Positions 1 to 26,063 of a stretch of 33,216 nt of DNA are shown here, piece after piece. Location: positions 1 to 33,216 of the forward strand of contig JBJHAZ010000001.1 of NCBI GenBank assembly GCA_050485225.1. Direction: 5' to 3'. The notes beneath the pieces are model-generated. The model saw only the letters and a program-made list of their open reading frames with translations, was not told the DNA's origin and searched no databases. Every line of letters starts with the position of its first letter. Position 1 is the stretch's first letter. The stretch comes from Gammaproteobacteria bacterium. GTDB lineage: Bacteria > Pseudomonadota > Gammaproteobacteria > Pseudomonadales > Porticoccaceae. The position numbers and the translations under genes were made by a program.

Positions 1-391
1 CGATGGCAGGGCGCGGCACCAGTACGTCGATATCCGTATACACCCTTCCTTGAGCGTTGCGACTGTCTCGCAAGGTGTAACCGGCTCCCTTGAGAAACAC
101 CGGCTCAATGCCTTCGGCCATGAGGCGCGCGGCGATGTGCGTGCATTCGAACCGAACCTGCTGCGCCTGCCGGCGGGAATACACCAGCATCGACTGAAGG
201 TGGCGCCGCGCATAGCCATCGTACTCCGGCAGGTCGCCCGAACGCTCCGCCAGCGCGGCCACGGTACCGAGCAGTCCGCATTCCCGCAGGACATGAACGA
301 TCGACTCCCACGCCGACCCGGGCAGGGACAGACCCGTGGCCGGATCCCTGATCAGCTCGACAATCGCCGTCACCCGCTCATCGCGGTTCAA
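1..391 (-). CDS. Nucleotidyltransferase family protein (PF14907-like uncharacterised NTase), 5' part only; gene continues beyond the left edge
   Basis: Absent from the ORF track because it runs off the edge. The reverse frame is open from 391 to 1. My translation: (L/M)NRDERVTAIVELIRDPATGLSLPGSAWESIVHVLRECGLLGTVAALAERSGDLPEYDGYARRHLQSMLVYSRRQAQQVRFECTHIAARLMAEGIEPVFLKGAGYTLRDSRNAQGRVYTDIDVLVPRPAI. The KG..Y...R....DIDVLV block is the hallmark of this NTase family. A candidate TTG start at 389-391 overlaps the upstream stop (TTGA). The + strand ORF 50..442 is its antisense shadow. Confidence 0.6.
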   Translation of the reverse strand, partial: MNRDERVTAIVELIRDPATGLSLPGSAWESIVHVLRECGLLGTVAALAERSGDLPEYDGYARRHLQSMLVYSRRQAQQVRFECTHIAARLMAEGIEPVFLKGAGYTLRDSRNAQGRVYTDIDVLVPRPAI

Positions 392-1242
392 GGGGCAAAC
401 TCCCCGGCCAGGAAGTCCTTCACCGCCGACAGGTCGCTGTAAGCGATCGAGAACGAACGCGATTGAGCGGCGAGCCGCCCGATGAGGTTGAAACCCCGCT
501 CGCCGACAATGTTGTAGTTGAATGCATGGCTGCACAGTTGCCGAAAGGTATCGATCTCATCGACCGGACGAACGTTCAGCGCCATCCCCGGCTGATAACG
601 AGGAAATACCACACCGGCAATGGAAACGGGCTCAAGGGTTCGGAAGCGCTGCCACGGCATCGCCTTGACATGAGCCACGTCGCCTTTCTGGGTATCGCGC
701 GCCGTACCGGTCATGACCGCATCGGGAAACCAGGACCGAACGAGGTCGATGGAACGGTTCTTCAGACACACCGGTCTGAACAGGGGCATGACCCGAGCGG
801 TATCGAAGTCGATCAGCGCCATTTCGTCGGAATAGAGGTTCCAGCCGTGGAAGGCCAGAAAAACGCTCAGGGTGCTTTTGCCAGCTCCCGGCGTGGCAGG
901 GAAAATCAATGCCTGACCATCGCGCTCCAGCACCGCTGCATGCACGATAAGCCGAGTGTAGTCGTGTGCCGCAATGCACCAGTTCATGCCCCACTCGAGC
1001 ACCGGATACGCCTGGGAGCGCGGGACGGGCTTGAAGGGCGATCGCTGGTCGGCATGAAAGGAAATCTGGGGGCGCAGAAACCGACGCAGCAGCGAGTCGC
1101 AGGTCAGTGACACGCGGAAATCCACCGGCTCGCGGCCATGATCCGGAGGAAGGTCACCGTACATCGCCTGCAGAGGATCGAGCACAAAACCCGGGCAACT
1201 TTCGACGCGGAAACGGAACTGACCGGAATCAATAAGGTACAT
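388..1242 (-). CDS. HprK-related kinase A (HPr kinase/phosphorylase C-terminal-like P-loop protein)
   Basis: HAAVLERDGQALIFPATPGAGKSTLSVFLAFHGWNLYSDEMALID resembles the HprK catalytic core, including the P-loop GAGKST. I trimmed the track start (1296) to the ATG at 1240-1242 (MYLIDSG...). This ATG overlaps the PqqD stop as TGATG, implying translational coupling. Confidence 0.8.
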   Translation of the reverse strand: MYLIDSGQFRFRVESCPGFVLDPLQAMYGDLPPDHGREPVDFRVSLTCDSLLRRFLRPQISFHADQRSPFKPVPRSQAYPVLEWGMNWCIAAHDYTRLIVHAAVLERDGQALIFPATPGAGKSTLSVFLAFHGWNLYSDEMALIDFDTARVMPLFRPVCLKNRSIDLVRSWFPDAVMTGTARDTQKGDVAHVKAMPWQRFRTLEPVSIAGVVFPRYQPGMALNVRPVDEIDTFRQLCSHAFNYNIVGERGFNLIGRLAAQSRSFSIAYSDLSAVKDFLAGEFAP

Positions 1243-1496
1243 CACTGAACGTCTTCGATGATCCCGAAGGCGGACAGGGTTTCGATCAGTTGCCACCCCT
1301 CATCCCGGGACAATCGCAGGCGACGACACAGTTCATCCGGCGTAAAGGTCGGCGCTTCGAGCAACTCACTCATGGAAACAGGGTCAACGTGGAGAAAGTG
1401 GGTATCCCCGGAGCGGGGGCAGTAGAACGCCGCCCCGCTACGGTCACCGGCATAATACCGGGGGACTCCGGCGAGCGGACGGTATCGATCCGTCAT
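1242..1496 (-). CDS. PqqD-family peptide chaperone / RiPP-recognition-element-like protein (HPr-rel-A system type)
   Basis: 84 aa. The C-terminal ...TPDELCRRLRLSRDEGWQLIETLSAFGIIEDVQ fits the PqqD winged-helix pattern. It sits immediately upstream of, and overlaps, the HprK-related kinase. Confidence 0.75.
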   Translation of the reverse strand: MTDRYRPLAGVPRYYAGDRSGAAFYCPRSGDTHFLHVDPVSMSELLEAPTFTPDELCRRLRLSRDEGWQLIETLSAFGIIEDVQ

Positions 1497-1512
1497 CGGC
1501 AGTCAACGACCC

Positions 1513-2250
1513 TCAGACACAGACCATGCCCGGAGCCAGCTCATTCCACTGGGTGGTGGCGTCACCGGAGAAGACAGCAGCGAATACCGCATCGCCCAGA
1601 TCGCCGGCCAGAAACGTCAAGGCGTAAAAATGCTCGACCCACTCCTGGGGCGACCCGGCATCCCGGCCGGGCAGCGAGTGACCGGCAAAGAATCCGAAAT
1701 AGGCATCGAGCCAGATGGCCGCAAGCTGAAACTTGACGCCACCCGGGGACGCCAGCTCGGCCGCGACATTGCAATGTTCACCCGGCACGGTATCGCCCGG
1801 GGGCAGATCGAAGTAGGCCTCGGCCATCACTTGCCGAATGAAGCAGCGCAGGGTATCCAGGTCTCCGGCTTCGACCAGCGGAAACGCGGAAGCCAGCGAT
1901 GCATTGACACCGTTGTTATTGCCATTGTTACCGTTATTGCCATTTCCCTGGGCATTGCCCCTGCCACGGTTGCCGGGGCCGTCGCCGTTGTGCGACAGCA
2001 AGGTCATCCAGAACCCCGGGGAACGCCCCCAGACCTCGGGAATCGTGCAGTAGTCGTCCCGGTTGTCCTGGGTTACCGAGCCACCCGACATGGCGCCCGA
2101 GACGGTGCATTTACCCCACACCGGCTGCGCGGCCAGCGTGGTCACCAGCGCTGCTGCGGAGGACTTCTGCAAAAAACTCCGTCGCGACGAATTCGTAACT
2201 CTCTCACGCTCCATGCGCACGAGTTGCTGTTCTTCCTGATCAAGCTTCAT
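1513..2250 (-). CDS. Hypothetical secreted protein with a twin-arginine signal and an Asn/Gly-rich tract
   Basis: Tat motif SRRSFLQKSSAAALVTTLAAQPVWG. Low-complexity tract GNRGRGNAQGNGNNGNNGNNNG. I chose the ATG at 2248-2250 (MKLDQEE...), which has AAGGG 8 nt upstream. The track's GTG start at 2328 lies inside the candidate sigma-54 promoter. The gap to the PqqD gene is only 16 nt. I do not recognise the family. Confidence 0.65.
   Translation of the reverse strand: MKLDQEEQQLVRMERERVTNSSRRSFLQKSSAAALVTTLAAQPVWGKCTVSGAMSGGSVTQDNRDDYCTIPEVWGRSPGFWMTLLSHNGDGPGNRGRGNAQGNGNNGNNGNNNGVNASLASAFPLVEAGDLDTLRCFIRQVMAEAYFDLPPGDTVPGEHCNVAAELASPGGVKFQLAAIWLDAYFGFFAGHSLPGRDAGSPQEWVEHFYALTFLAGDLGDAVFAAVFSGDATTQWNELAPGMVCV
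1909..1960. repeat. Imperfect short-period (about 9 nt) repeat encoding the Asn/Gly tract
   Basis: + strand: gttgttattgcc attgttacc gttattgcc atttccctg ggcattgcc. The tract is locally AT-rich within a high-GC gene. Confidence 0.6.
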
Positions 2251-2315
2251 GTGTAAACCCTTGGAATTACCTGATGCAGCGACACGAAATCCCCGTGACA
2301 CTGCCACCGGCTGGG

Positions 2316-2332
2316 ATGCAACCTTCACGCCA
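2316..2332 (-). promoter_or_regulatory. Candidate sigma-54 (-24/-12) promoter for the Tat-protein/PqqD/kinase/NTase operon
   Basis: The reverse strand reads TGGCGTGAAGGTTGCAT. Consensus is TGGCAC-N5-TTGCW. GG-N10-GC spacing is exact, and TGGC and TTGCA are conserved. It lies about 65 nt upstream of the ATG at 2250. Confidence 0.5.
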
Positions 2333-2476
2333 GCCTACCAAGCTGCCTGCAAACCATTGACCCAGTTGAAATAACGATTGCCTCAAGCCAGCGCGAGACA
2401 GCCGCGAATGCGAAAGTGCAAAAAAACCTGACACCCCTTGCAACCGCACAACCCTCCTGCGCACTGGAAAGATAGC

Positions 2477-5034: not shown

Positions 5035-7173
5035 ATGATGTGCGGTGGCGCGCCGCCCGAATACCCCGGATCGCCAAAAGGACTCGTCGTGTCGATCTCT
5101 GGCAGCATTGGACTTCACACCTACCTGATCGCCGGCGCCTGTTATGGTGTACTCACCCTGCTGACGCTCACCCTCCGCCGCGTCAAGACCATCGGCCCTG
5201 CGCTGCTTGCAGCCTGCCTGGGGACCACGATCTGGGCTACAGTCGTCGCCTCGGCCACCGCCACCGGCCAACCACCGGCCAACCTGGTACTCACCAGCGA
5301 ACTGCTCCGCAACACATTGTGGCTGGGTTTCCTGCTGCAGATGCTCAGCCTGCGCAGTGACGACACCCCCTGGCGACTGCGCGGTCGGCACTGGCTACCA
5401 TGGCTGGCAGCGTTTCTTGTGGGTGCCTCGGTGCTGCTGATCGCACAGCCCCTGCAGCCCCTCGACCCCATGGGGCCGCTGTCGCTGGAGCTGCAGTATG
5501 AAACCACACTGATTCTGTGGCTCCTGATGTCCCTGACGGGACTGGTATTGCTCGAACAGCTGTTTCGCAACGGGTCCAGCACCGAACGCTGGGCGCTGAA
5601 ACACCTGTGTATCGGCCTGGGAGCGATGTTTGCGTACGACTTTTTCATGTACGCCGAAGCATTGCTGTTCCGGCAGCTGGACGCCGACCTGTGGCAGGCA
5701 CGCGGACTGGTCACCGCGGTGGTGACGCCCCTGTTTGCCATTTCCATGGCACGCAACAGTTCCTGGCACCATCGGGTCACCATTTCACGCCAGGTGGTCT
5801 TCCACACCGTGACCTTGATGGGTGCAGGCCTGTATCTGCTGGGGATGGCCCTGATCGGCTATATCATCCGCTTCATGGGCGGCACCTGGGGGCATGTGCT
5901 GCAGGTGGGCTTTCTTGCCGGTGCCGGAGTGCTGCTGGCGACTGTGCTGTTTTCCGGAAAGGTCCGCGCGCAACTTGGCGTGCTGCTCAGCAAACATTTT
6001 TTCAGCTATCGCTACGACTATCGCGAGGAGTGGCTGAAGTTCACCGGGGCCCTGACAGCACTGGATCAGGAGGTGCCCGCCGGCATCGTGCGCACCTTGG
6101 CGGAGCTGGTGGATAGCCCGGCAGGGCTCCTCTGGGCCAGGGGTGACGAGGGGCGAATGCACCTGGTGGCCAATTGGGAGATGCCTCCCCCCCCGGTCAA
6201 CGATCAGCAACTTGCCCAGCTGGCCAGCTGGCTGGCTCGAACCGACTGGGTGATCGATCTGCGCGAGTGGCACAGAACACCGGACGTGTACAACGATCTC
6301 GAGCTCCCGCAGTGGATCCAGGCCGATCCCAGTCTGTGGCTGATCGTGCCGCTGGTATTCCAGGAGCGGCTCGAGGGTATCCTGTTGCTCAGGAAGTCCC
6401 CTCTGAAAGCCGGTATCAACTGGGAGGATCGGGACCTGCTCAAGACAGCCGGACGCCAGGCCGCCAGCCACCTGGCCCAGCACCTGGCGAGCAAGGCGCT
6501 GGTGGAAGCCCGCCAATTCGAGGCCTTCAACCGGCTTTCGGCTTACGTGGTACACGACCTCAAGAACATCCTTGCCCAGCAATCGCTGATGGTGGCCAAC
6601 GCGGCCAAGCATCGCCACAATCCGGCCTTCATTGACGACATGATAGCGACCGTGGAAAACTCGGTAGCCAGAATGCAGCGCCTGATGGAGCAGATGCGCA
6701 GCGGGCTCCGCGAGGCACCGCCGGAGCCGGTGGATCTTGCGGAGGTGCTGCGGGAGGTCGTGGCGGCCAGAAACGGTGGCCAGCCTGCACCGACCGCCCA
6801 GCTCGACAAGGGCGACTGCCGGGTGATCGCCGACAGAGAGCGACTTTTTACCGTGTTCAACCATCTGGTCCAGAACGCGCAGGAAGCGACCCCACCCGAT
6901 GGTACCGTCACCGTGCGGATGAAGCCCGACGAGGACGTCGTGGTGGTGGAGGTGGAGGATACCGGTTGCGGTATGAGCGAGGAGTTCATGCGCAACAGCC
7001 TGTTCCAGGCTTTTGAGTCCACCAAGGGACTCACCGGCATGGGCATCGGCGCGTTCGAAAGTCGCGAGTACGTCCGCCACCTGGGCGGTGATATCCAGGC
7101 CAACAGCGAGCCGGGGGCAGGAAGCCTGTTCAGGGTAACCCTGCCCAGATCAATGACACGGGTTCCGGAGTAA
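5035..7173 (+). CDS. prsK: PEP-CTERM system histidine kinase PrsK (multi-TM N-terminus, GAF-like middle, HisKA/HATPase C-terminus)
   Basis: About 300 aa of hydrophobic helices, followed by the H-box SAYVVHDLKNIL and HATPase motifs (NHLVQNAQEA, DTGCGM, GMGIGAF). It lies directly upstream of a sigma-54 response regulator inside an EPS locus. An alternative start is the GTG at 5089, preceded by AAAGGA. Confidence 0.85.
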   Translation: MMCGGAPPEYPGSPKGLVVSISGSIGLHTYLIAGACYGVLTLLTLTLRRVKTIGPALLAACLGTTIWATVVASATATGQPPANLVLTSELLRNTLWLGFLLQMLSLRSDDTPWRLRGRHWLPWLAAFLVGASVLLIAQPLQPLDPMGPLSLELQYETTLILWLLMSLTGLVLLEQLFRNGSSTERWALKHLCIGLGAMFAYDFFMYAEALLFRQLDADLWQARGLVTAVVTPLFAISMARNSSWHHRVTISRQVVFHTVTLMGAGLYLLGMALIGYIIRFMGGTWGHVLQVGFLAGAGVLLATVLFSGKVRAQLGVLLSKHFFSYRYDYREEWLKFTGALTALDQEVPAGIVRTLAELVDSPAGLLWARGDEGRMHLVANWEMPPPPVNDQQLAQLASWLARTDWVIDLREWHRTPDVYNDLELPQWIQADPSLWLIVPLVFQERLEGILLLRKSPLKAGINWEDRDLLKTAGRQAASHLAQHLASKALVEARQFEAFNRLSAYVVHDLKNILAQQSLMVANAAKHRHNPAFIDDMIATVENSVARMQRLMEQMRSGLREAPPEPVDLAEVLREVVAARNGGQPAPTAQLDKGDCRVIADRERLFTVFNHLVQNAQEATPPDGTVTVRMKPDEDVVVVEVEDTGCGMSEEFMRNSLFQAFESTKGLTGMGIGAFESREYVRHLGGDIQANSEPGAGSLFRVTLPRSMTRVPE

Positions 7174-7219: not shown

Positions 7220-8564
<1,345 letters not shown>

Positions 8565-8578
<14 letters not shown>

Positions 8579-11500
8579 TTCACCCACCCCGGGTGCGCGC
8601 TCCGCAGCTCCGCCCTGCCCCGGCCCGGCACTGACCACCGTTGGTTGGCTCCGCCTGCTTTGGTGGACCTACACCCTGCTGATCGTTTATGGCTCCCTGT
8701 ACCCGATGACCGAATGGGACGGGTCGCAGGGCGGCTTGCAGGCCCTGCTGGACGCCGGTGTCCCCGAGCCCCCGCCCCTGCGGGATGTGGTCATCAATGT
8801 CCTCGTCTACATCCCCTTCGGGCTGTTCTGCACCCTGCTGATACCGGGCCGCCCGCTGATCAGGCTGCTGCTGGCGACCCTGGCGGGGCTGACCCTGTCC
8901 TCGTCGATGGAGCTTGCCCAGACCTGGTTACCGGTACGCATCACCTCCCTCGCCGATATTGCCCTCAATACCACCGGCACGCTGATCGGTTTTGTGATCG
9001 CCGTACTGATTGCAGGCCCGGCCCCATATCGACGGCGGCCACACCCGAGTCCCTGGCTGCACCTCATCGCAAGACTCCAGGGGTACCGCCTGCCCTGCCT
9101 GCTGACGGCAGCACTGATGATCAGCCTTTACGGTGCCGTGGCGCTCCAGAAAACCCCCGACGACACTTCCCTCAAGCGCATCAATCCGGTGGTTTTCAGC
9201 AACCATGTGAACAGCCCCGCAGGCATGTTGGAGCTGCTGATGGTGGTGGCCCTTGTCGCGCTGCTGGCGGTCTGCAGCGCGCCCTTTATCCGCAACTGGG
9301 GTCGCCTGTGGGCCATTTCCACGGCGCTGTTCGTCCTTGCAATGGGTGTGGAGTTGGGCAAAACCACGATTCCCGGCACGACGCCCGACATCACCCTGCC
9401 CATCGTCGCCCTCGTGACCTGGCTGCTGACCGCGCTGTCACCGCTGGCCCATCCCCGACTGCCGTTGTACACGGCAAAAGAAGACCGGGTCAGACACCAC
9501 CATCGCAAAACCACCCTGGCCTTTGCCGGCATCGCCATCGCCCTCGCCACTGGGCTTCTGTTGTGGGTCGGCTCCATGACCGACCCCCTGTACCGCCCGA
9601 AACCCTACCAGCTGCCCCCCGTAGCGGTGCTGCCGTCACCGACGTTTCCCGCTTTCCGGGAAAACCATCCGCGCTTACCTGCTCCCTCGCGGGAGGACAT
9701 CGCCGCGCTCGACCGCGACAACCCCGAGTTCTGGTCGAACCACCAGATCAAAGCTACCCGGGGCGAGCTCTATTCCCGCATCCTGCTCGCCTACACCGGT
9801 CGGGGTGAAATGGATCGCGACCGGTTGCTGGCCGACCTGCTCGCCCTGGAGCCCACGGGTCGCGGGCATCGACAGACGGAACCCCTGGCACTGGCCCTTG
9901 ACTGGCTTCACGATCAATGGACGGCTGACGAACGCGCGCAACTGATAGAGAAAACTCACGCCGCGTGCCAGTACCAGGCGTACCTGATACGGGACCATTA
10001 CCGGCTCTCGCCCTACAATGCCATTCTGTACAACCGCCCCCTGCACGCCCTGATGGCAGCGACCCTGGTGACCCACGGCCACGCGCAGGACGACCGCTGC
10101 ATGCGATTCACCGCCGACTACTGGCGTCATCGTGTCATACCCGTCTGGCGGCAGGTAATGGGCGAAGGCGGTGGCTGGCACGAGGGTGCCGAGTACCTGG
10201 CGGTGGGCCTCGGCCAGGCGGCCTATCAGTTACCGGCCATGTGGCGCCACGCCACCGGCGAGGATCTGTTCCGAGCGGTACCGGGGTTGGCAGGACTGCC
10301 CGACTTCGCCGTCCATCGCAGGCGCCCGGATGGCCTCCAGTCGCGCATGGGCAGCGGCAATCACCTCGACCGAACCATGCCGGATCTGGGCGCGCTGTCC
10401 CTGGAGTTCGGGCACGCCCACGGTTACCGTCTGGCAGCGCCCCCCGCTTCCCCCGAGCCGCTCGCCTATCCCTGGGGACCGCTTTCGACCCCGGAAGCCG
10501 AGCTCGACGACCCACTGCCCGAGCTACCGACCCACGCCCACTTCGACGGCATCGGTCTGCTGACGGCGCGCTCCGACTGGGGCGAGAACGCGTCGTACGT
10601 GACCTTCAAGGCCGGCAACAACTACTGGTCCCACAGCCATCTGGACCAGGGCACCTTCACCGTCTTCAAGGAGGGTGCGCTGGTGATCAACAGCGGTCTC
10701 AGCGGACCCAGCGGGCAGTCCGACCACGTCGTCAACTACACGCGACAATCCATCGCTCACAATGTGGTTACCGTCACCGATCCCGACGACACGGTGCCGA
10801 TGCCACAGCGTGACCCCGGCCTGGCGCCCAGGGCGGTCGCCAACGACGGCGGCCAACGTCGAGTCGGCTCCGGGTGGGGGCTGCCCGCGCCCATGGACCA
10901 TCTGGAGTGGCGCCGTCTCGAGCACATATACCGCACGGTGGGCGATACCCGTCACGGCGCCACCGAGGATGTAGTCTGGAAGGTGGCCGACCTGACGCCG
11001 GCCTATACCAACATCGACTCGGGCAAGGGAGATTTCGCTGCCCGAACCCGCCGTGTCGAGCGCTATCTGCGCACCTTTGTCTACGACGCCCGCAACGAGA
11101 TCATCGTGATTCACGATCGCGTGGCCAGCTCTGATCCGGCTTTCCGGACGCGCTGGCTGCTGCACAGTATCAACGAACCGGCGCTGGCCGAGCGGGGCTT
11201 CCACATACGGGCGACCGACCCGAGCTCGGATCGGCCCGGCGGCCATCTCGAGGGGCGGGTTCTGCTGCCCGCTGATCCGGTGCTCACCACAGTGGGCGGC
11301 CCCGGTTTCGAGTTCTACGTGGACGGCCGGAATTACGACGAACAAGGCATGGTGCAGAGGATCGCTGCGGGTCTGCCCCACGGCGAGATCGGCGCCTGGC
11401 GCCTCGAAATCAGCCCCGAGGCGGATTCAGCCGAAACCGAGTTCCTGGTGGTGATGGGTCTGTCGGGTTCAGGCCAGCAACGACCGATACCCGACCTGAT

Positions 11501-11606
11501 GCTGGACAGTGGGCCGGAGCGGACCCTGCGGATCGGCGGCGAGCATCCACGGGTGTTCGAGCTCCCCGACGACATTGACCCGGTGCGGGTACAGCGCCAG
11601 CCCTGA
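8565..11606 (+). CDS. Large fusion protein: N-terminal VanZ-like domain + additional TM helices + C-terminal alginate-lyase/heparinase II/III-like domain
   Basis: VanZ-like motifs: INVLVYIPFGLF ... SSSMELAQTWLPVRITSLADIALNTTGTLIGF. Several further hydrophobic helices extend to about aa 340. The C-terminus has NYWSHSHLDQGTFTVFKEGALVINSG, typical of the heparinase II/III family. Start trimmed to the first in-frame ATG near the end of prsR (8565), which overlaps prsR by 14 nt. Confidence 0.75.
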
Positions 11607-12147: not shown

Positions 12148-12936
12148 TCAGGGCGCCAGGCCGGCGGTATCCAGCAGTGCCTTCACATGCCGGGCCGGAA
12201 TGGCGTAGGTGATCCCCGACGGGCGCTCCAGCACCGCCTCACGGGACTCCTTCACGAATACACTGTTGACCACGCCGATGACCCGACCGGTGGCCGGATC
12301 GAACACCGGGCTACCGCTGTTACCCGGGTAGGCGGTGGCATCGAGCTGAAACACATCGTAGGGATTGCGCATACGGCGAACCTGCGCTGCCGAGAGCTGA
12401 TTCGAGGACTCCGCCGTGTGGGACACCGGCGTGATGGACGCGACAATGCCCGTGTGGGTCGCCGGATAAAGGCCGAGGACAGCGCCGATGGGATATCCCG
12501 TAAAGGCGATGGAGGCGCCCTCCCGAACGCTGTCAGAATCACCGAGACGGACCACCGGGAGGGGGCCGGAGGTAATGCGCAACAACGCAAGATCGTGCAC
12601 CGGATCCTCGGCCACCACCGTGGCCGGATGCACCATGGCCTGACCACCACGACCGACGAATATCGCCAGGATCTGGTTGTTGTCGCGGTCGAGCTGATCC
12701 GGGATCACATGTCGGTTGGTCACGATGGTACGACCATCGGCCACCACAAAGCCGGTGCCGATCAACCGATTGGGGCTCTGCCCACGGACCGGCTGACGGG
12801 GTGGATAGGCGGTGCCCACACCCACCACCGCGGGGCGAATACCGTCGATCACATCCGGCAGACTCGCCGCCCAGACCACGCTCGGCAGCACGGCAAGCGC
12901 AACCAGCAGCGCCTGTAGTTCCTTCACAATCCGCAT
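12148..12936 (-). CDS. Secreted trypsin-like (S1 family) serine protease
   Basis: Signal peptide MRIVKELQALLVALAVLPSVVWAAS. Catalytic triad contexts TNRHVI, HDLALLRI and GNSGSPVFD. Start trimmed to the ATG at 12934-12936, with GGAG 8 nt upstream. It is 23 nt upstream of the phosphatase gene on the same strand. Confidence 0.85.
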   Translation of the reverse strand: MRIVKELQALLVALAVLPSVVWAASLPDVIDGIRPAVVGVGTAYPPRQPVRGQSPNRLIGTGFVVADGRTIVTNRHVIPDQLDRDNNQILAIFVGRGGQAMVHPATVVAEDPVHDLALLRITSGPLPVVRLGDSDSVREGASIAFTGYPIGAVLGLYPATHTGIVASITPVSHTAESSNQLSAAQVRRMRNPYDVFQLDATAYPGNSGSPVFDPATGRVIGVVNSVFVKESREAVLERPSGITYAIPARHVKALLDTAGLAP

Positions 12937-12954
12937 GTTAGACTCCGCTCTGTC

Positions 12955-12970
12955 TGGCACAGGGCCAGCC
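12955..12970 (+). promoter_or_regulatory. Candidate sigma-54 promoter for the ligase/decarboxylase operon
   Basis: TGGCAC-agggc-cAGCc. The -24 element is perfect and GG-N10-GC spacing is exact, but the -12 element keeps only GC. It lies 66 nt upstream of the ATG at 13036. Confidence 0.4.
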
Positions 12971-13035
12971 CAAGGATACCGCCCCTGCCCGCTCGACCCC
13001 CCAGAGCTGTACCGCCCGAACGGAAGCATTGAGAC

Positions 13036-14634
13036 ATGGCAGAGTTGATACACGACTTTATAGCTCAACGAGCCGCCGAGAACGGTGACTCTACCGCATT
13101 GATGTACAGGGAGGAAACGGTCAGCTATCGGTCGCTCTGGTCACTGGTCACCGGAGTTGCCCATGGCCTTCTGGAGCACAACCTGGGCGCGGGCGAACGA
13201 GTCGCCATTTTTCTGCCCAAACAGACCGAGACCGTGGCCGCCCTGTTCGGCACCGCACGTGCCGGTGGTTGCTTTGTGCCGGTCAACCCCGTGCTCAAGC
13301 CGCGCCAGGTGGCCTACATTCTGGAGCACTGCCAGACGCGAATCCTGATCACCTCCACGCAGCGCTACCAGGCGCTCGGCGAAGCCCTGCGCGACTGCCC
13401 GGCACTGCACACCGTTGTGCTGGTCGACGGCGATGGCAACTCTATACCCGACGACGCTTCGCTCTCGGTCATCGCCTGGCAACGGTTCCTGCGAGCAACA
13501 CCCGCCACCGGCCACCGCCGTATCGATCGCGACATGGCGGCGATTCTGTACACCTCCGGCAGCACCGGGCTCCCGAAGGGGGTCGTGCTGAGTCATCGCA
13601 ACATGGTGGCCGGCGCCGAGAGTGTTGCCCAGTACCTGGGCAACACGGCCGACGACCGTATATTGGCCGTGCTGCCGCTGAGTTTCGATGCCGGCCTGAG
13701 CCAGCTGACCACGGCCTTTTCCCGTGGCGCGGCCGTGGCACTGCTCGACTACCTGCTGCCGAGAGACGTGCTGCGCGCCGTGGTGCGCCACGGCATCACC
13801 GGCCTCACCGCCGTCCCCCCCCTGTGGAACCAGCTGGTTCAGCTCGACTGGCCACCCGAAGCCGCCGCCACCCTGCGTTACATCGCCAATACCGGCGGCG
13901 CCATGCCCGTACCCACCACCCGCGCCCTGCAACAACGGCTTCCCGACACCGACATCTATCTGATGTACGGTCTGACCGAAGCCTTTCGCTCTACCTACCT
14001 GCCGCCCGACCAGGTCGGTGCCCGCCCCACCTCCATCGGCAAGGCGATCCCCAACGCGGAAATCCTGGTGGTCAACGAGCGCGGTGAAATCTGCGGCCCC
14101 AATGAGCCCGGCGAGCTGGTTCACCGCGGTGCGCTGGTCGGACTGGGCTATTGGAACGATCCGGAAAAGACCGCGGAGCGGTTTCGCCCCCTGCCCGGCC
14201 AGGACCCGGCCCTGCCGCTGACCGAGATCGCCGTCTGGTCGGGTGACCGGGTCACCATGGATGAGGACGGCTACCTCTACTTTGTCAGCCGCCAGGACGA
14301 AATGATCAAGACCTCCGGTTACCGTGTCAGCCCCACCGAGGTCGAGGCGGTGGCCTATGCGTCGGGCTTGGTGACCGGAGCCGTTGCCCTGGGTGCCCGG
14401 CATCCCGTGCTGGGGCAGGCCATCGTACTGGTGGTCGCCGCCGCTTCGGCCGAAAGCGACAGGGACAACCTGGCCCACGAGCTGCACAGGTATTGCCAGC
14501 GGGAACTGCCCAATTTCATGGTACCGGCCCGAATCATCGTCGAGGATTCGCTGCCCCACAACCCCAATGGCAAGATCGACCGCAAGACACTGAGCGAACG
14601 CCATGCCAACCAGTTCGAGGAAGGCAACTCATGA
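13036..14634 (+). CDS. Acyl-CoA ligase (AMP-forming), exosortase-A-system-associated type
   Basis: AMP-binding signature ILYTSGSTGLPKGV, plus the adenylate-forming core motifs (TGD...DEDGYLYF..R..D..K..G..V) and a C-terminal NGKIDRK. It is paired with a PLP decarboxylase, as in exosortase A loci. Confidence 0.85.
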   Translation: MAELIHDFIAQRAAENGDSTALMYREETVSYRSLWSLVTGVAHGLLEHNLGAGERVAIFLPKQTETVAALFGTARAGGCFVPVNPVLKPRQVAYILEHCQTRILITSTQRYQALGEALRDCPALHTVVLVDGDGNSIPDDASLSVIAWQRFLRATPATGHRRIDRDMAAILYTSGSTGLPKGVVLSHRNMVAGAESVAQYLGNTADDRILAVLPLSFDAGLSQLTTAFSRGAAVALLDYLLPRDVLRAVVRHGITGLTAVPPLWNQLVQLDWPPEAAATLRYIANTGGAMPVPTTRALQQRLPDTDIYLMYGLTEAFRSTYLPPDQVGARPTSIGKAIPNAEILVVNERGEICGPNEPGELVHRGALVGLGYWNDPEKTAERFRPLPGQDPALPLTEIAVWSGDRVTMDEDGYLYFVSRQDEMIKTSGYRVSPTEVEAVAYASGLVTGAVALGARHPVLGQAIVLVVAAASAESDRDNLAHELHRYCQRELPNFMVPARIIVEDSLPHNPNGKIDRKTLSERHANQFEEGNS

Positions 14635-17521: not shown

Positions 17522-17523
17522 CT

Positions 17524-17538
17524 GTCAACAAATTTGAC
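17524..17538. promoter_or_regulatory. Perfect inverted repeat GTCAA-N5-TTGAC (possible activator binding site)
   Basis: GTCAAcaaatTTGAC lies 3 nt after the sugar transferase stop and about 75-90 nt upstream of the sigma-54-like element at 17612. Confidence 0.3.
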
Positions 17539-17611
17539 GCACTGGTGTAACAATCGCGCCACCGAGGCCCCGATCCGCGCCAATCCATTGAATATTATGA
17601 TCTTATTAAAG

Positions 17612-17627
17612 TGGCTTGCTTCTTGCT
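17612..17627 (+). promoter_or_regulatory. Candidate sigma-54 promoter upstream of the small Arg-rich membrane protein
   Basis: TGGCTT-gcttc-TTGCT with exact GG-N10-GC spacing. It is preceded by an AT-rich tract (ccattgaatattatgatcttattaaa). The ATG at 17736 is about 108 nt downstream. Confidence 0.5.
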
Positions 17628-17735: not shown

Positions 17736-18026
17736 ATGAATACTTTGCTGGTCACCATAGCGGTGCTGGGCTTGTCAGCCCTGATTGTATCGGCCTACAT
17801 TTTTGCGGCGGCAGCCCGAACCTTTGTCTCCCATCACGATGATGAGGGACTCTCCGGTGAGCCACTCCCCAACCTCCACCGGCGCAGCGAGGAAGACCGT
17901 CGCCGGGCGCCGGCCCCGGCCCGGTTTCCCATTCTGGCGGGCGGACAGTGGATTATGGAGGACCGGCGCAGGACACCCGACCGACGCAAGCAATCCAGCT
18001 GGAAAATGGCGGAGTCAGGCAGCTGA
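17736..18026 (+). CDS. Small hypothetical membrane protein with a duplicated EDRRR motif
   Basis: 96 aa. N-terminal TM helix LLVTIAVLGLSALIVSAYIFAAAA. Cytoplasmic tail has SEEDRRRAPAP ... MEDRRRTPDRRK. AAGG-type SD upstream. I do not recognise the family. Confidence 0.5.
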   Translation: MNTLLVTIAVLGLSALIVSAYIFAAAARTFVSHHDDEGLSGEPLPNLHRRSEEDRRRAPAPARFPILAGGQWIMEDRRRTPDRRKQSSWKMAESGS

Positions 18027-22285: not shown

Positions 22286-23635
22286 TCAATCCGTCGCGGC
22301 CGCCCGGTAGCGCTCCGGGTTGATGTCGTGCCGCTTCACCAGCTTGTGAAAGTCCGAGCGGTTGCGTCCGGCGAGTTCGGCCGCCATGGTCATGTTGCCG
22401 TTGGTGGCGGTCAGCACCTGAATCAGGTACCTGCGCTCGAAGTCCTTGCGGGCGTCGCTGAGGCTCACCACAGGCCGCACCCGATCGATCGGTAGGGCCT
22501 GCTCCACCTGGCCGGCCGCAATAACGGGTCCCGGGGCCAGCGCAAACAGCCGCTCCACGGTATTTTCCAACTGGCGAATGTTGCCGGGCCACTCATAGCC
22601 GAGCAGCACCGGCAAGGCATCGGGGGCGAGCCTCTTGGCCGGTCGGCCGGTGCGCTGGGCTATACCGGCGATGAAGTGCTCCACCAACATCGGGATATCC
22701 TCGGGACGATCCCGCAGCGGCGGCAAGTGCAGATTGACCACGTTGAGCCGATAGAAGAGATCCTCCCGGAACTGCCGCTCGGCCATCGCCTGCTGCAGAT
22801 CGATATGGGTCGCGGAAATGACCCGCACATCCAGTGACATGTCCGCCCGACCGCCGACCGGCCGCAGCTTGCCTTCCTGCAGCACCCGCAACAGCTTCGC
22901 CTGCAACGGATACGGCATGTCACCGATCTCATCGAGCAGCACCGTGCCCCCATCGGCGGTAGCGAACAGGCCCTCGCGGTCCTGATGGGCACCGGTAAAG
23001 GCGCCCTTCACGTGACCAAACAGCTCCGACTCCAGCAGGTCCTGGGGTATGGCACTGCAGTTGATGGCCACGAAGGGCTGATCGGCGCGGGCGCTCTGAC
23101 TGTGAATGGCATCGGCCAGCAACTCCTTGCCGGTACCGCTCTCCCCGGTAATGAGGATGTTGACGTCGCTCTGGGCGTACAGCCGCGCCTGCTCCAGCAA
23201 CTGATACATCTTGGCGCTGCGGGTAAGAATTCGGGATTGGCCCACCTCGCTGGGCGGCGAGGCCGGCTGCGCCGCATCGCAGGCGCGCGCCAGGGTGCTT
23301 TCCAGTTCGTCCTTGTCCACCGGCTTGGTGAGAAAGGCGAATACGCCCTCCTGGGTGGCGCTGACGGCTTCCCGGATCGTGCCGTGAGCCGTCAGGACGA
23401 TGAACGGAATGCCCGGCCAGCGATCGTGCGCTCGCCGAAACAGCTCCAGGCCATCCATCGGTTCCATGCGGAGATCCGTGACCACGGCGTTGACACCGTT
23501 CTCTTCCAGCACCTCCAGTGCCTGCGCCCCGGAGGAAGCAGTCAGGGTGCGATACCCGAACCCGCCCAGCCTCAGGCTCAGCAGCTGCAGCATGCCCGGG
23601 TCATCGTCGACGACAAGTACCTGTGGACTCTTCAA
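22286..23635 (-). CDS. glrR: Sigma-54-dependent response regulator, GlrR/QseF-like
   Basis: By eye it aligns along its whole length with E. coli GlrR as I remember it (VLVVDDDPGMLQLLSLRL..., TDLRMEPMDGLELF, ILTAHGTIREAVSATQEGVFAFLTKPVDKDEL, ESELFGHVKGAFTGA, WPGNIRQLEN, C-terminal HTH). Its start overlaps the upstream stop (ATGA). Confidence 0.8.
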   Translation of the reverse strand: MKSPQVLVVDDDPGMLQLLSLRLGGFGYRTLTASSGAQALEVLEENGVNAVVTDLRMEPMDGLELFRRAHDRWPGIPFIVLTAHGTIREAVSATQEGVFAFLTKPVDKDELESTLARACDAAQPASPPSEVGQSRILTRSAKMYQLLEQARLYAQSDVNILITGESGTGKELLADAIHSQSARADQPFVAINCSAIPQDLLESELFGHVKGAFTGAHQDREGLFATADGGTVLLDEIGDMPYPLQAKLLRVLQEGKLRPVGGRADMSLDVRVISATHIDLQQAMAERQFREDLFYRLNVVNLHLPPLRDRPEDIPMLVEHFIAGIAQRTGRPAKRLAPDALPVLLGYEWPGNIRQLENTVERLFALAPGPVIAAGQVEQALPIDRVRPVVSLSDARKDFERRYLIQVLTATNGNMTMAAELAGRNRSDFHKLVKRHDINPERYRAAATD

Positions 23636-24114
23636 TGATTCCTCCTGTTGCGACGAAGACTTTCCATATCGGCCTCGATCTGGCGGATACCCTCGACAGT
23701 CGCTTCCAGTTGTTCGGCGAGCTGGCTGTTGCGGTCCTCCAGCATGCGATAACTGCGGGTGTGATCGCGCAGCATGTTCAACAACGATTGCAGCGCCGGG
23801 TCGCGATCGGGGTTGTCCGGCAAGGCATTCAGGGCTTCTCGCATGAGACCCGGTGTACGCGCCGGGTCGCAGCTCGTCAGCAGCACGCGCTCGATAGCGG
23901 TCGCCTCGTCATGCCCCTGCAACTCAGCAAGCCGGGCACGCTGCACTTCACCTTCCAGGCTGCACAGTTCGCTGCGACGCAACAGCCAGGTGGTTGCAGG
24001 ATCCGGCTCCGGATCGACCGCTTCACAGACGGGCAGATCATCAACGGGCACCGGCTGCAACGGCTGACAACCCGCTAACAATACGGCAACCAGCCACAAA
24101 GTACTTCTAGTCAT
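23632..24114 (-). CDS. Lipoprotein located between the kinase and regulator genes (QseG/YfhG-like position)
   Basis: Lipobox LLAGC. C-terminal coiled-coil-like region (LEDRNSQLAEQLEATVEGIRQIEADMESL). It overlaps both flanking genes. The gene order kinase-lipoprotein-regulator equals glrK-qseG-glrR. Confidence 0.65.
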   Translation of the reverse strand: MTRSTLWLVAVLLAGCQPLQPVPVDDLPVCEAVDPEPDPATTWLLRRSELCSLEGEVQRARLAELQGHDEATAIERVLLTSCDPARTPGLMREALNALPDNPDRDPALQSLLNMLRDHTRSYRMLEDRNSQLAEQLEATVEGIRQIEADMESLRRNRRNH

Positions 24115-25552
24115 TTCTTGTCACCCCCTTGTGGGGGAAAAAGAGCAGGAATGCCGTGCCCTCTCCCTTCCCTGAATGTACGGAAATACTGCCGTTGAGC
24201 AAATCCGCAGCCGCCTTGACGATCGCCAGCCCGATGCCATTGCCGGGGCGACTGTCGCCGCGGGTGTTGCGACCGCGGTAGAACGGAGCAAATATATGGT
24301 CAAGTTCGCTTCTTTCAATACCCGTGCCCGTGTCGGACACCGACAGGCACCAGCCCTTGCGGTCCTCCTCCCAGCGCACCGTCACGGATCCGCCGTCCGG
24401 CGTGAACTGGAACGCATTGCCCATCAGGTTGGCGAGTATCATCTCGAGCAGCCTCGGGTCACTGGTGACGCTGTCCACATTCCCGCTCAACTCCCATCTC
24501 AGGCTCTTGTCGGGGTTCGCCGTGACGATACGCTGCCGCAAGGTCTCGCAAAGTCCGGCCATATCCACCGGTTGAAAATGGGCCATCAGCCCGTGAGACA
24601 CGGCATTGTAATTGAGCAGCTGCTGAATCAGGTCCTGCAGGTGGCGCGCATTGCTGAACAGGATTTCCAGCACCTCCCGCTGACCCGGCTGGAGGGCTCC
24701 GGTGACCTCGTCCCTCATGAGGCTCGCCGCCTCGATGATCGCAGCCAGCGGCGTCTTCAGCTCATGGGTCACATGCTGGATGAACGCGGTGCGCTGCTCG
24801 TCGCTGGCGCAGATCTGCTGTCTCATCCACTCGAGGTTATTACCCAGCGCCACCAGGTCGGCTGGCCCGCCGATGACGATGGGCTCGTCCCACTGCTGCC
24901 GGCCAAGCCGCCGGATGGCCTGGCTCAGCCTCCAGATCGGACGCGAAATGAGAAAGGTGCCCAGCACCATCAGCAGGAAGGTGCCGGGCAGGGTCAGCAT
25001 GGCAATCAGAAACAGTCGATCCACGATGCGGGCAAACTCCCGTTCGCCCTGCTGGATATTCGCCTGGCGTGCCCGCGAGACGGCGCTGGCCAGGTCGTCA
25101 CTGTCAAGCAGCAGAGTCTGCACGAGGTGTGTCACCTGCTGGTCCGACGCCTCGCCGTTGACGGCGAGGCTGTCTTCGAGCAGCGCCGCATCCTCACCGA
25201 TGGTGACTACCAGTCGACGCCAACCGGACTCGAGCGGCAATGACCGGAGCAGACCGAGTGTTTCACCGAGCGTCTCGTTCTTCTGCACGAAAAGCTCGAG
25301 AAAGGTTTCGTCCCGCAACAGGCGATACTGCCGGGCGAGGCGAACCAGCTCGCTGACGTCGTCCATCAGCCGGCCGGTGGCATCCGCCAGCCGGTCGAAG
25401 CGCTGCATGCTCTCCGTCTGACGCGCGGTCTGCTGCTGCAGCGAGAAAACGGCGTACCCCGCAGCAACCATGAGCGGCAATACCGCCAACAGGGTTGCCA
25501 ACGCCCACTGCTGCAACAGGGTCAGGCGACCAAAACCGGAACTCCTCAACAT
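24107..25552 (-). CDS. glrK: Sensor histidine kinase, GlrK/QseE-like
   Basis: Two TM segments flank a periplasmic domain, followed by HAMP (SRPIWRLSQAIRRLG), the H-box FIQHVTHELKTPLAAI and HATPase motifs (LMGNAFQFT, DTGTGI, GIGLAIV). Confidence 0.8.
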   Translation of the reverse strand: MLRSSGFGRLTLLQQWALATLLAVLPLMVAAGYAVFSLQQQTARQTESMQRFDRLADATGRLMDDVSELVRLARQYRLLRDETFLELFVQKNETLGETLGLLRSLPLESGWRRLVVTIGEDAALLEDSLAVNGEASDQQVTHLVQTLLLDSDDLASAVSRARQANIQQGEREFARIVDRLFLIAMLTLPGTFLLMVLGTFLISRPIWRLSQAIRRLGRQQWDEPIVIGGPADLVALGNNLEWMRQQICASDEQRTAFIQHVTHELKTPLAAIIEAASLMRDEVTGALQPGQREVLEILFSNARHLQDLIQQLLNYNAVSHGLMAHFQPVDMAGLCETLRQRIVTANPDKSLRWELSGNVDSVTSDPRLLEMILANLMGNAFQFTPDGGSVTVRWEEDRKGWCLSVSDTGTGIERSELDHIFAPFYRGRNTRGDSRPGNGIGLAIVKAAADLLNGSISVHSGKGEGTAFLLFFPHKGVTRND

Positions 25553-25746: not shown

Positions 25747-25762
25747 TGGCACAGCACTTGCT
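25747..25762 (+). promoter_or_regulatory. Sigma-54 promoter (near-perfect consensus)
   Basis: TGGCAC-agcac-TTGCT, with the -24 and -12 elements perfect and at exact spacing. It is oriented toward the small lipoprotein gene, about 75 nt before the ATG at 25836. Confidence 0.8.
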
Positions 25763-25835
25763 AAACACCCATCGTCTGCAGCTGACGCGAGGTGCCCAAC
25801 CCCACTCCAGCCAACACTGCAGGGAGCGAATGCCG

Positions 25836-26063
25836 ATGAAACCGATGCTGCTGTTGAGTGGCGTGTTCTGCAGCATCCTGCTGGCACTCACATTACCGGG
25901 TTGCCAGAAGGAGGGGCCCGCAGAGCGTACCGGACGGGCATTGGACGAAGCAGCTCAGGACGCGGCGATGCACCTTGATCGCCAGAGACAGAAAGCCGAG
26001 GAACTGCGACTGGATTCCGAGACGTTCCAGCGCGATTGCGCCGCCACTGAAGGTGGCTGCTGA
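25836..26063 (+). CDS. Small putative lipoprotein (75 aa)
   Basis: MKPMLLLSGVFCSILLALTLPGCQKEG... is a signal peptide with a lipobox-like LPGC. GGGAG lies 9 nt upstream of this ATG. The track ORF 25656..26063 extends spuriously upstream through the promoter. Confidence 0.55.
   Translation: MKPMLLLSGVFCSILLALTLPGCQKEGPAERTGRALDEAAQDAAMHLDRQRQKAEELRLDSETFQRDCAATEGGC

Follow-up and report, generated by a model that had tools for sequence, protein, structure and literature searches.

The stretch of DNA considered here (the window) comprises 33,216 nucleotides (nt) of a Porticoccaceae genome (assembly GCA_050485225.1, contig JBJHAZ010000001.1), and its left end is occupied by a cassette of four tightly packed reverse-strand genes that encode, in this order on the minus strand, a protein with a twin-arginine translocation (Tat) signal, a PqqD-like protein, an HprK-related kinase A and a PF14907 nucleotidyltransferase. 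The gene for the Tat-signal protein (2250..1513, −; 245 amino acids (aa), ATG at 2250, stop codon 1515..1513) is separated by a 16-nt gap (1512..1497, −) from that of the PqqD-like protein (1496..1242, −; 84 aa plus stop, SGDTHFL motif), which is joined to the kinase gene (1242..388, −; 284 aa plus stop) by a TGATG stop/start overlap (1244..1240, −). A TTGA overlap (391..388, −) leads from the kinase gene into the nucleotidyltransferase gene (391..1, −), which begins with a TTG start at 391 and of whose approximately 381 aa the window holds 130, the rest lying beyond its edge. The preliminary description of this DNA had drawn up the arrangement as an operon that joins a Tat-exported protein to tailoring genes of the kind found with peptides made on ribosomes and modified after translation (RiPPs), and its coordinates and junctions proved exact upon checking of the open reading frames (ORFs) and their translations.

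The left flank of the window was judged from relatives, as the same genes were otherwise met only on a 1.8-kb contig. In the two closest genomes (62–64% identity), the array consists of a 229–235-aa protein, an 85-aa protein, a 284-aa kinase and a 381-aa PF14907 protein, the first of these being 41–51% identical to the Tat-signal protein of the window, and the genes past the transferase are unrelated to the cassette (GH88 in one genome, ThiF in the other). Because the cassette ends at the transferase in these close relatives, no RiPP core genes are expected to be hidden to the left of the window.

Both enzymes belong to the families that had been named for them, as profile searches placed each above its curated cut-off. 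The kinase scored 297.3 bits on TIGR04352 (cut-off 200 bits), its residues 4–277 aligning with model positions 3–276 of 280, and the 130-aa transferase fragment scored 58.1 bits on PF14907 (cut-off 31.2), the family to which the full-length 381-aa orthologues of close relatives are also annotated. The P-loop PGAGKST and the S-D-E motif are invariant throughout the kinase family (alignment columns P118, G119, G121, K122, S123, T124, S138, D139 and E140), and the translated transferase fragment displays the nucleotidyltransferase G-A-G ... D-I-D motif (KGAGY...TDIDVLV); with their catalytic motifs intact, the two enzymes look competent. The AlphaFold2 model of the kinase (predicted local distance difference test score, pLDDT, 93.6) retrieved ATP-dependent phosphoenolpyruvate carboxykinase at the top of the Foldseek matches (E 4e-6), followed by HprK/P (E 7e-4 to 1e-2, with probabilities of 0.97–1.0 for HprK/P chains). 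Phosphoenolpyruvate carboxykinase and HprK/P are known to share one fold. At the sequence level, neither the kinase profile nor the transferase found relatives in the PDB, solved HprK/P structures included.

The PqqD-like assignment of the 84-aa protein stood the comparison in a more indirect manner, namely through the orthologues and not through the window protein itself, which scored 19.8 bits (E 1.1e-3) on TIGR04353 and thus falls short of curated membership (cut-off 35). For this and all following counts of linkage, neighbors and promoters we used 80 kinase A loci from species genomes. In nearly all of them an ORF of 80–100 aa abuts the kinase start; 20 of 33 positional orthologues match TIGR04353, with a best E of 4e-18, and the motif SGDTHxL is common to all of them. 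Against the PDB, the profile of these orthologues aligned along near full length with two proteins that serve in lasso-peptide recognition, TfuB1 at E 2e-3 and TbiB1 at E 0.07, both weak E-values, and it also matched many winged-helix DNA-binding proteins; TfuB1 and TbiB1 were the only PDB matches to span the N-terminal strands plus the winged helix. Since the orthologues match TIGR04353 and their profile finds TfuB1 and TbiB1, we treat the 84-aa protein as a putative divergent PqqD-type recognition protein of the HPr-rel-A PqqD family.

The cassette is widespread. A protein search with kinase A yielded 1,471 clusters, for which NCBI and JGI use the name 'HprK-related kinase A', and relatives of the kinase occur in no fewer than 576 species representatives. 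The transferase gene lies directly 3' of the kinase gene in 80 of 80 loci. Starting from three Tat-protein homologues, an iterated profile search of the loci recovered a family member beside the cassette in every locus with sufficient flank except L062 (a locus from a Nitrosomonadaceae metagenome-assembled genome), mostly about 1 kb upstream of the kinase gene and before the PqqD-like gene, and in about ten loci directly downstream of the transferase gene. Two cassettes are present in L041 (Paraglaciecola sp. MB-3u-78, 6–11 kb, divergent), where each holds its own Tat protein, and in L067 (10–14 kb, tandem); in other genomes, a single enzyme set is followed by a tandem pair of Tat-protein genes (L065, L066 and L074, listed together with L041 and L067). 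Such duplicated cassettes and tandem genes recall the multiple precursors of RiPP clusters. The reciprocal test gave the same picture: a word-index search with the Tat protein found 21 close unnamed relatives and an exhaustive profile search 327 clusters (E ≤ 1e-3), and the distant members seen with the latter only were encoded directly upstream of a PqqD-like gene and, where the contig reaches far enough, also of kinase A. Hundreds of species have inherited the four genes together, and the Tat-signal protein is a core component of the cassette. Its earlier designation as the candidate partner of the enzymes has thus gained weight, as the adjacency persists through permuted gene orders and the reciprocal profile test agrees.

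Lasso cyclase, leader protease and short precursor genes were found neither in the window cassette nor as conserved neighbors in the 80 loci, which bears out the earlier remark on missing core RiPP machinery and led us to reject the reading as a lasso cluster. A conserved small ORF or a PEP-CTERM gene inside the cassette was likewise not seen, and PADLOC returned no defense-system match for any of the four proteins.

The Tat-signal protein of the window passes the TIGR01409 TAT signal model (18.3 bits versus a cut-off of 16.7). Residues 1–46 constitute the predicted signal, in which S-R-R-S-F-L-Q-K is followed by AAALVTTLAAQPVWG and which ends with AAQPVWG. Residues 48–58 read C-T-V-S-G-A-M-S-G-G-S (codons 2077..2109, −; S51 codon 2100..2098) and contain the S-G-x-x-S motif that we propose as the modification site, and residues 66–245 form a helical domain with no known relatives. 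In the AlphaFold2 model, residues 1–65 are disordered and the helical domain mostly has pLDDT values above 90. Neither fold (best E 6) nor sequence comparison revealed PDB relatives of this domain, and Pfam and NCBIfam offered no model for the family when 41 diverse members were compared. Between the first helix and the remaining helical domain, the window protein carries a Gly/Asn-rich low-complexity insert, GNRGRGNAQGNGNNGNNGNNNG (residues ~88–115; ~1906–1989, −), which is modeled with low confidence; most homologues lack this insert or have a much shorter one.

Three residues, R24, W45 and S51, never vary among the 41 diverse members, and conservation reaches at least 90% for R23, F26, G46, C48, G52, C68, G75 and W81. 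In 84 locus-derived members, the arginine pair is conserved to 96–98% and the two serines of S-G-x-x-S to 96% and 94%; S55 can be called almost invariant. The motif region falls into three subtypes, C-x-x-S-G-x-x-S-G-N-x-S, A-S-G-H-G-S (without Cys) and C-x-x-P-S-G; S-G-x-x-S is present in all three, a few residues past a signal end of the VWG, VWA or VLG type. The folded domain diverges fast and is poorly conserved among distant members. Conservation of the signal end and of a disordered motif next to a fast-evolving domain looks like a recognition-plus-modification site; we infer that this is the pattern to be expected of such a site, unlike that of an ordinary periplasmic enzyme. The kinases group by the motif subtype of their neighboring Tat protein and not by genus: the kinases of Paraglaciecola, like those of Catenovulum, are spread over two clades, and the two kinases of L041 belong to different clades, each accompanied by its own partner type. 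Such agreement would fit enzyme–substrate pairing.

Three other identities of the Tat protein were considered and rejected. Its C-terminus (...WNELAPGMVCV) gave no PEP-CTERM match in Pfam or NCBIfam, and because a PEP-CTERM sorting domain is missing, we do not regard it as a PEP-CTERM protein or an exosortase substrate. A lipoprotein is disfavored by the K, Q or R that precedes the conserved Cys in many members and by the lack of this Cys in the A-S-G-H-G-S subtype. An N-glycosylation sequon was dismissed as well, the N-x-S of SGNxS being missing from the clade of the window protein.

The region upstream of the Tat-protein gene harbors a sigma-54 (−24/−12) element, TGGCGTGAAGGTTGCA (motif 2; 2317..2332, −), 66 nt upstream of the ATG at 2250. 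The preliminary description had noted a sigma-54-like promoter here. On its own, the element is not above chance, with 61 two-mismatch matches in the window versus 44 ± 7 expected; what stands is its conservation across loci and its pairing with an activator motif. In a survey of the best GG-N10-GC site within 300 nt upstream of the RR codon, this site reached the 95th percentile of the background in 70% of the 80 upstream regions, loci with the Tat-protein gene after the transferase included. The second element upstream, TGTC-N5-TTTTTACA, was discovered by k-mer enrichment upstream of Tat-protein genes and scored out of 12; at least 10 of 12 positions are matched in 62 of the 80 loci versus 1.5% of background windows. 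The copy in the window, TGTCAGGTTTTTTTGCA (motif 1, a predicted PrsR site; 2417..2433, −), lies 84 nt upstream of the sigma-54 element and matches TGTCNNNNNTTTTTACA at 11 of 12 positions, with a single mismatch (TTTGCA). Spacers between motif 1 and the sigma-54 element cluster near 51, 62, 73, 84 and 95 nt, about one helical turn (10–11 nt) apart, a regularity suggesting that the activator needs to be bound to a single side of the DNA helix. The pair at 2433..2417 and 2332..2317 is the only strong bipartite site in 33 kb; Rfam matches were not found in the window. Neither a scan for sigma-70 promoters and terminators nor folding of the intergenic region between TviB and the Tat-protein gene yielded anything informative, and read-through from tviBC into the cassette may occur.

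This architecture corresponds to the cis-region described for PEP-CTERM genes, which according to Haft et al. (2006; PMC1569441) comprises motif 1, 17 nt long with TTTACA at its end, a spacer averaging 62.8 nt (32–92), a sigma-54 motif 2 and about 71 nt to the start codon, and which they proposed to be bound by PrsR. With its spacer of 84 nt and a further 66 nt to the ATG, the promoter of the window falls within the published definition of the PEP-CTERM box. The genes for the histidine kinase PrsK (5035..7173, +; TIGR02916, 773.9 bits) and the sigma-54-dependent response regulator PrsR (7220..8578, +; TIGR02915, 699.3 bits), both above cut-off and both part of the XrtA/PEP-CTERM system, lie 2.8 kb from the cassette. 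In 53 long loci surveyed for PEP-CTERM markers (PrsK, PrsR, PrsT or TIGR03694 acyltransferase) within 10 kb, 30 had at least one, and a tally of motif scores showed motif 1 to be kept in 15 of the 23 without a marker. Since the Tat-protein gene has a PrsR-type activator site together with a sigma-54 promoter, PrsK/PrsR probably activate it along with the PEP-CTERM/exosortase regulon, and by its cis element the cassette would belong to a PrsR-type regulon. The co-regulation with the exopolysaccharide (EPS)/exosortase regulon suggested earlier has thereby become more specific and stronger than proposed. The cassette shares its cis-regulatory architecture with the PEP-CTERM genes of the PrsK/PrsR regulon (PMC1569441), and in the window PrsK/PrsR are encoded beside it. 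It differs from those genes in that the Tat protein lacks the sorting domain and in that the promoter drives or precedes an enzyme operon instead of a single gene.

The closest parallel comes from lasso peptides. HPr-kinase homologues of lasso clusters (PadeK, PsmK) phosphorylate a serine of the linear precursor (paeninodin, pseudomycoidin), and PsmN, an 'uncharacterised NTP transferase', is required to add one or two hexoses to the phosphate, for which its D-x-D motif is needed. With this tailoring set the cassette has a trio of protein types in common, namely a recognition protein of the PqqD type (here putative), an HprK-like P-loop kinase and a nucleotidyltransferase. Unlike lasso clusters, it has no cyclase, B protease, short precursor or ATP-binding cassette (ABC) exporter, its kinase belongs to a separate family (TIGR04352), and the candidate substrate is a protein of 190–280 aa with a twin-arginine signal, in which the proposed serine is internal, just past the signal. 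The cassette would function like a lasso tailoring set but is no lasso cluster. From HprK/P, with which the kinase has in common the P-loop kinase fold shared by phosphoenolpyruvate carboxykinase, it deviates by the missing HPr or phosphotransferase system context and by an extra N-terminal domain that aligns better with phosphoenolpyruvate carboxykinase.

A second parallel is provided by the bufferins, small proteins with Sec signal peptides that are modified prior to export by a multinuclear non-heme iron-dependent oxidative enzyme (MNIO) together with a partner containing a RiPP recognition element (RRE) (PMC11626156). Common features would be a small folded precursor with a general-export signal instead of a dedicated leader and, as proposed here, modification in the cytoplasm. 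The differences are export by Tat and not Sec, a chemistry of serine kinase and transferase rather than oxidative cysteine heterocyclisation, and a substrate two to three times larger.

In databases, the cassette corresponds to the NCBIfam 'HPr-rel-A system' (TIGR04352 plus TIGR04353), of which the kinase is a clear and the small protein a divergent member. Because the kinase and chaperone families already hold curated names, the cassette cannot be called unrecognised. The name covers two protein families only and implies no function, and the Tat-protein family is without a curated model. Our literature search found no publication on the HPr-rel-A system, the HprK-related kinase or TIGR04352, for PF14907 only an unrelated paper, and no published link of the Tat-protein family to the cassette or to the PEP-CTERM box. 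New here is a candidate substrate family with a defined site, plus the link to the PEP-CTERM box.

Taken as a whole, these observations and the lasso analogy point to a four-gene protein-modification cassette that encodes its own substrate, in which S51 would be phosphorylated, the phosphate elaborated and the product exported via Tat; we consider the chances of this reading to be about even. In such a scheme, the PqqD-like protein would bind the N-terminal region of the pre-protein, from the RR motif to VWG, in the cytoplasm, as an RRE binds a leader, and would present the adjacent disordered segment to kinase A. The latter would phosphorylate the invariant S51, possibly also S55, and the PF14907 transferase might extend the phosphoserine with a sugar or nucleotide, as PsmN acts after PsmK. 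The folded and modified protein would then be exported by the Tat pathway and its signal cut after VWG, which would bring the modified serine to within some five residues of the new N-terminus; located in the periplasm or outside it, the protein may act in the polysaccharide/biofilm program. A more far-reaching version, according to which the Tat signal peptide doubles as a RiPP-style leader that is read by the PqqD-type protein and directs phospho-glycosylation or phospho-nucleotidylation of an invariant serine in a full-size protein before export, can be put forward only tentatively, and we rather doubt it in this form; if true, Tat substrates modified ahead of their export would constitute a class not known so far. 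The exosortase-associated polysaccharide might then be primed or anchored by the phosphodiester-linked group close to the mature N-terminus. The general reading given in the preliminary description, an operon of a Tat-exported protein and RiPP-style tailoring genes that is co-regulated with the EPS/exosortase regulon, is supported.

Several points weigh against the idea that the cassette modifies its own Tat protein at S51. Target residue and chemistry, as well as the link to the substrate, are deduced from conservation and analogy. The characterised lasso kinases act on a C-terminal and not an internal serine, and PsmN was likened to the PF14907 transferase by description, not by family assignment. 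The best structural matches of the kinase, the phosphoenolpyruvate carboxykinases, are small-molecule enzymes. As to the signal, the (short) TIGR01409 model is matched at E ≤ 0.01 by only 3 of the 41 family members, and betaproteobacterial members depart from S-R-R-x-F-L-K. For bufferins, the signal peptide was found to be dispensable for modification (PMC11626156), and recognition in the present case need not depend on the signal either. The agreement between kinase tree and motif subtype can be explained equally well if the cassette is passed on in one piece. Finally, L062 (8012–9912) encodes kinase and transferase with no PqqD-like or Tat-protein gene detectable nearby, and is the only informative locus that lacks both.

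Part of this evidence would be accommodated if the Tat protein were a co-regulated periplasmic partner, such as a binding protein or an enzyme, and the substrate were encoded elsewhere, for example among the PEP-CTERM proteins or as an unannotated small peptide. The Tat proteins have no conserved C-terminal serine of the kind targeted by lasso kinases, L062 has retained the two enzymes without a Tat protein, and cassette and PEP-CTERM protein genes share a regulatory element. We nevertheless regard this explanation as unlikely, as the near-universal adjacency has persisted through permutation of gene order, tandem duplication and, in L041, duplication of the whole cassette; a mere effector should conserve its folded domain, not the signal end and a disordered S-G-x-x-S, and the cassette itself offers neither a conserved small ORF nor a PEP-CTERM gene as the alternative substrate.

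The similarity of the kinase to phosphoenolpyruvate carboxykinases, its top Foldseek matches, and the many winged-helix DNA-binding proteins matched by the PqqD-like profile could also mean that the substrate is not a protein at all but a sugar, nucleotide-sugar, lipid carrier or EPS precursor, with the PqqD-like protein serving as a scaffold or regulator of the winged-helix type and the product being handled in the periplasm by the Tat protein. The cassette often adjoins TviB/TviC-type uridine diphosphate (UDP)-sugar and EPS genes, as such a role would suggest, yet the TviB/TviC adjacency is confined to a minority of loci. Coverage of N-terminal strands plus winged helix by TfuB1 and TbiB1 only, the match of 20 of 33 orthologues to the curated peptide-chaperone model, and the fact that HprK/P and the lasso kinases, which have the same fold, are protein or peptide serine kinases render a non-protein substrate quite improbable in our view. 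Least probable appears a reversible serine phosphorylation or nucleotidylylation that gates Tat export or signal cleavage with a chaperone of the Tat-proofreading type, for although HprK/P is a bifunctional kinase/phosphorylase, the motif serine lies a few residues from the predicted cleavage site, and signal-peptide-binding chaperones are established for Tat substrates (TorD, DmsD, NapD), there is no indication of reversibility, the PqqD fold is unrelated to the known Tat chaperones, and the strict co-inheritance of the transferase (80 of 80) fits a PsmK/PsmN-like two-step build-up better than a switch.

PEP-CTERM/exosortase systems have been known from genomes since 2006 and are biochemically poorly understood; the cassette adds to them a widespread regulon member that is not a PEP-CTERM protein. 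If modification of the Tat protein by the cassette were true, RRE-guided tailoring would no longer be limited to small RiPPs but would include an exported protein of full size, covalently modified ahead of Tat transport, and the PF14907 transferases and kinase A, which carry database names without a published function that we could find, would gain one. The target offered is precise, namely the peptide CTVSGAMSGGS with two serines, and four genes.

Some further features of the window and of the related loci deserve mention. Downstream of prsR, where the tetratricopeptide repeat (TPR) protein PrsT would be expected, an ORF at 8436–11603 (+) encodes a HepB (heparinase II/III-like) region (residues 702–1014); as annotated, its start overlaps prsR, and the true start probably lies further downstream. 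A weaker pair resembling the PEP-CTERM box is located at 17523–17627 (+) and consists of TGTCAACAAATTTGACG, a 72-nt spacer and TGGCTTGCTTCTTGCT. It comes after an EpsB_2 glycosyltransferase gene and before a 96-aa ORF (17736–18026, +), the product of which has a single hydrophobic helix at its N-terminus, a tail rich in Arg and no evident PEP-CTERM domain. A perfect sigma-54 consensus, TGGCACAGCACTTGC, is found at 25747–25761 (+), about 68 nt upstream of a small ORF (~25830–26063, +) with a lipoprotein-type signal (…LALTLPGC…), which is divergent from a GlrK/GlrR-like pair of histidine kinase and sigma-54 response regulator (22289–25552, −); Rfam gave no GlmY/GlmZ-type RNA near 25747–26063.

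In Alteromonadales loci such as L008, L009, L011, L025 and L043, a recurrent group of genes lies upstream of the cassette on the opposite strand and encodes a ThiF-family protein (PRK08223), an Acg/Rv1355c-like flavin mononucleotide (FMN) nitroreductase, a TIGR03694 PEP-CTERM-associated acyltransferase, a patatin-like lipase and an ElyC-like protein. In Alteromonadales loci, the TviB/TviC-type UDP-sugar genes often follow directly after the transferase gene. About 41 of the 80 loci contain a gene for a DegP/trypsin-like serine protease of ~260 aa with a Sec-type signal and no PDZ domain (L005, 7857–8651), in many gammaproteobacterial loci directly upstream of the Tat-protein gene; this protease could be a processor of the exported Tat protein. 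Its orthologue in the window (12151–13068, −; 59% identical) is encoded 10 kb off, adjoining the gene for an exosortase-A-associated ligase.

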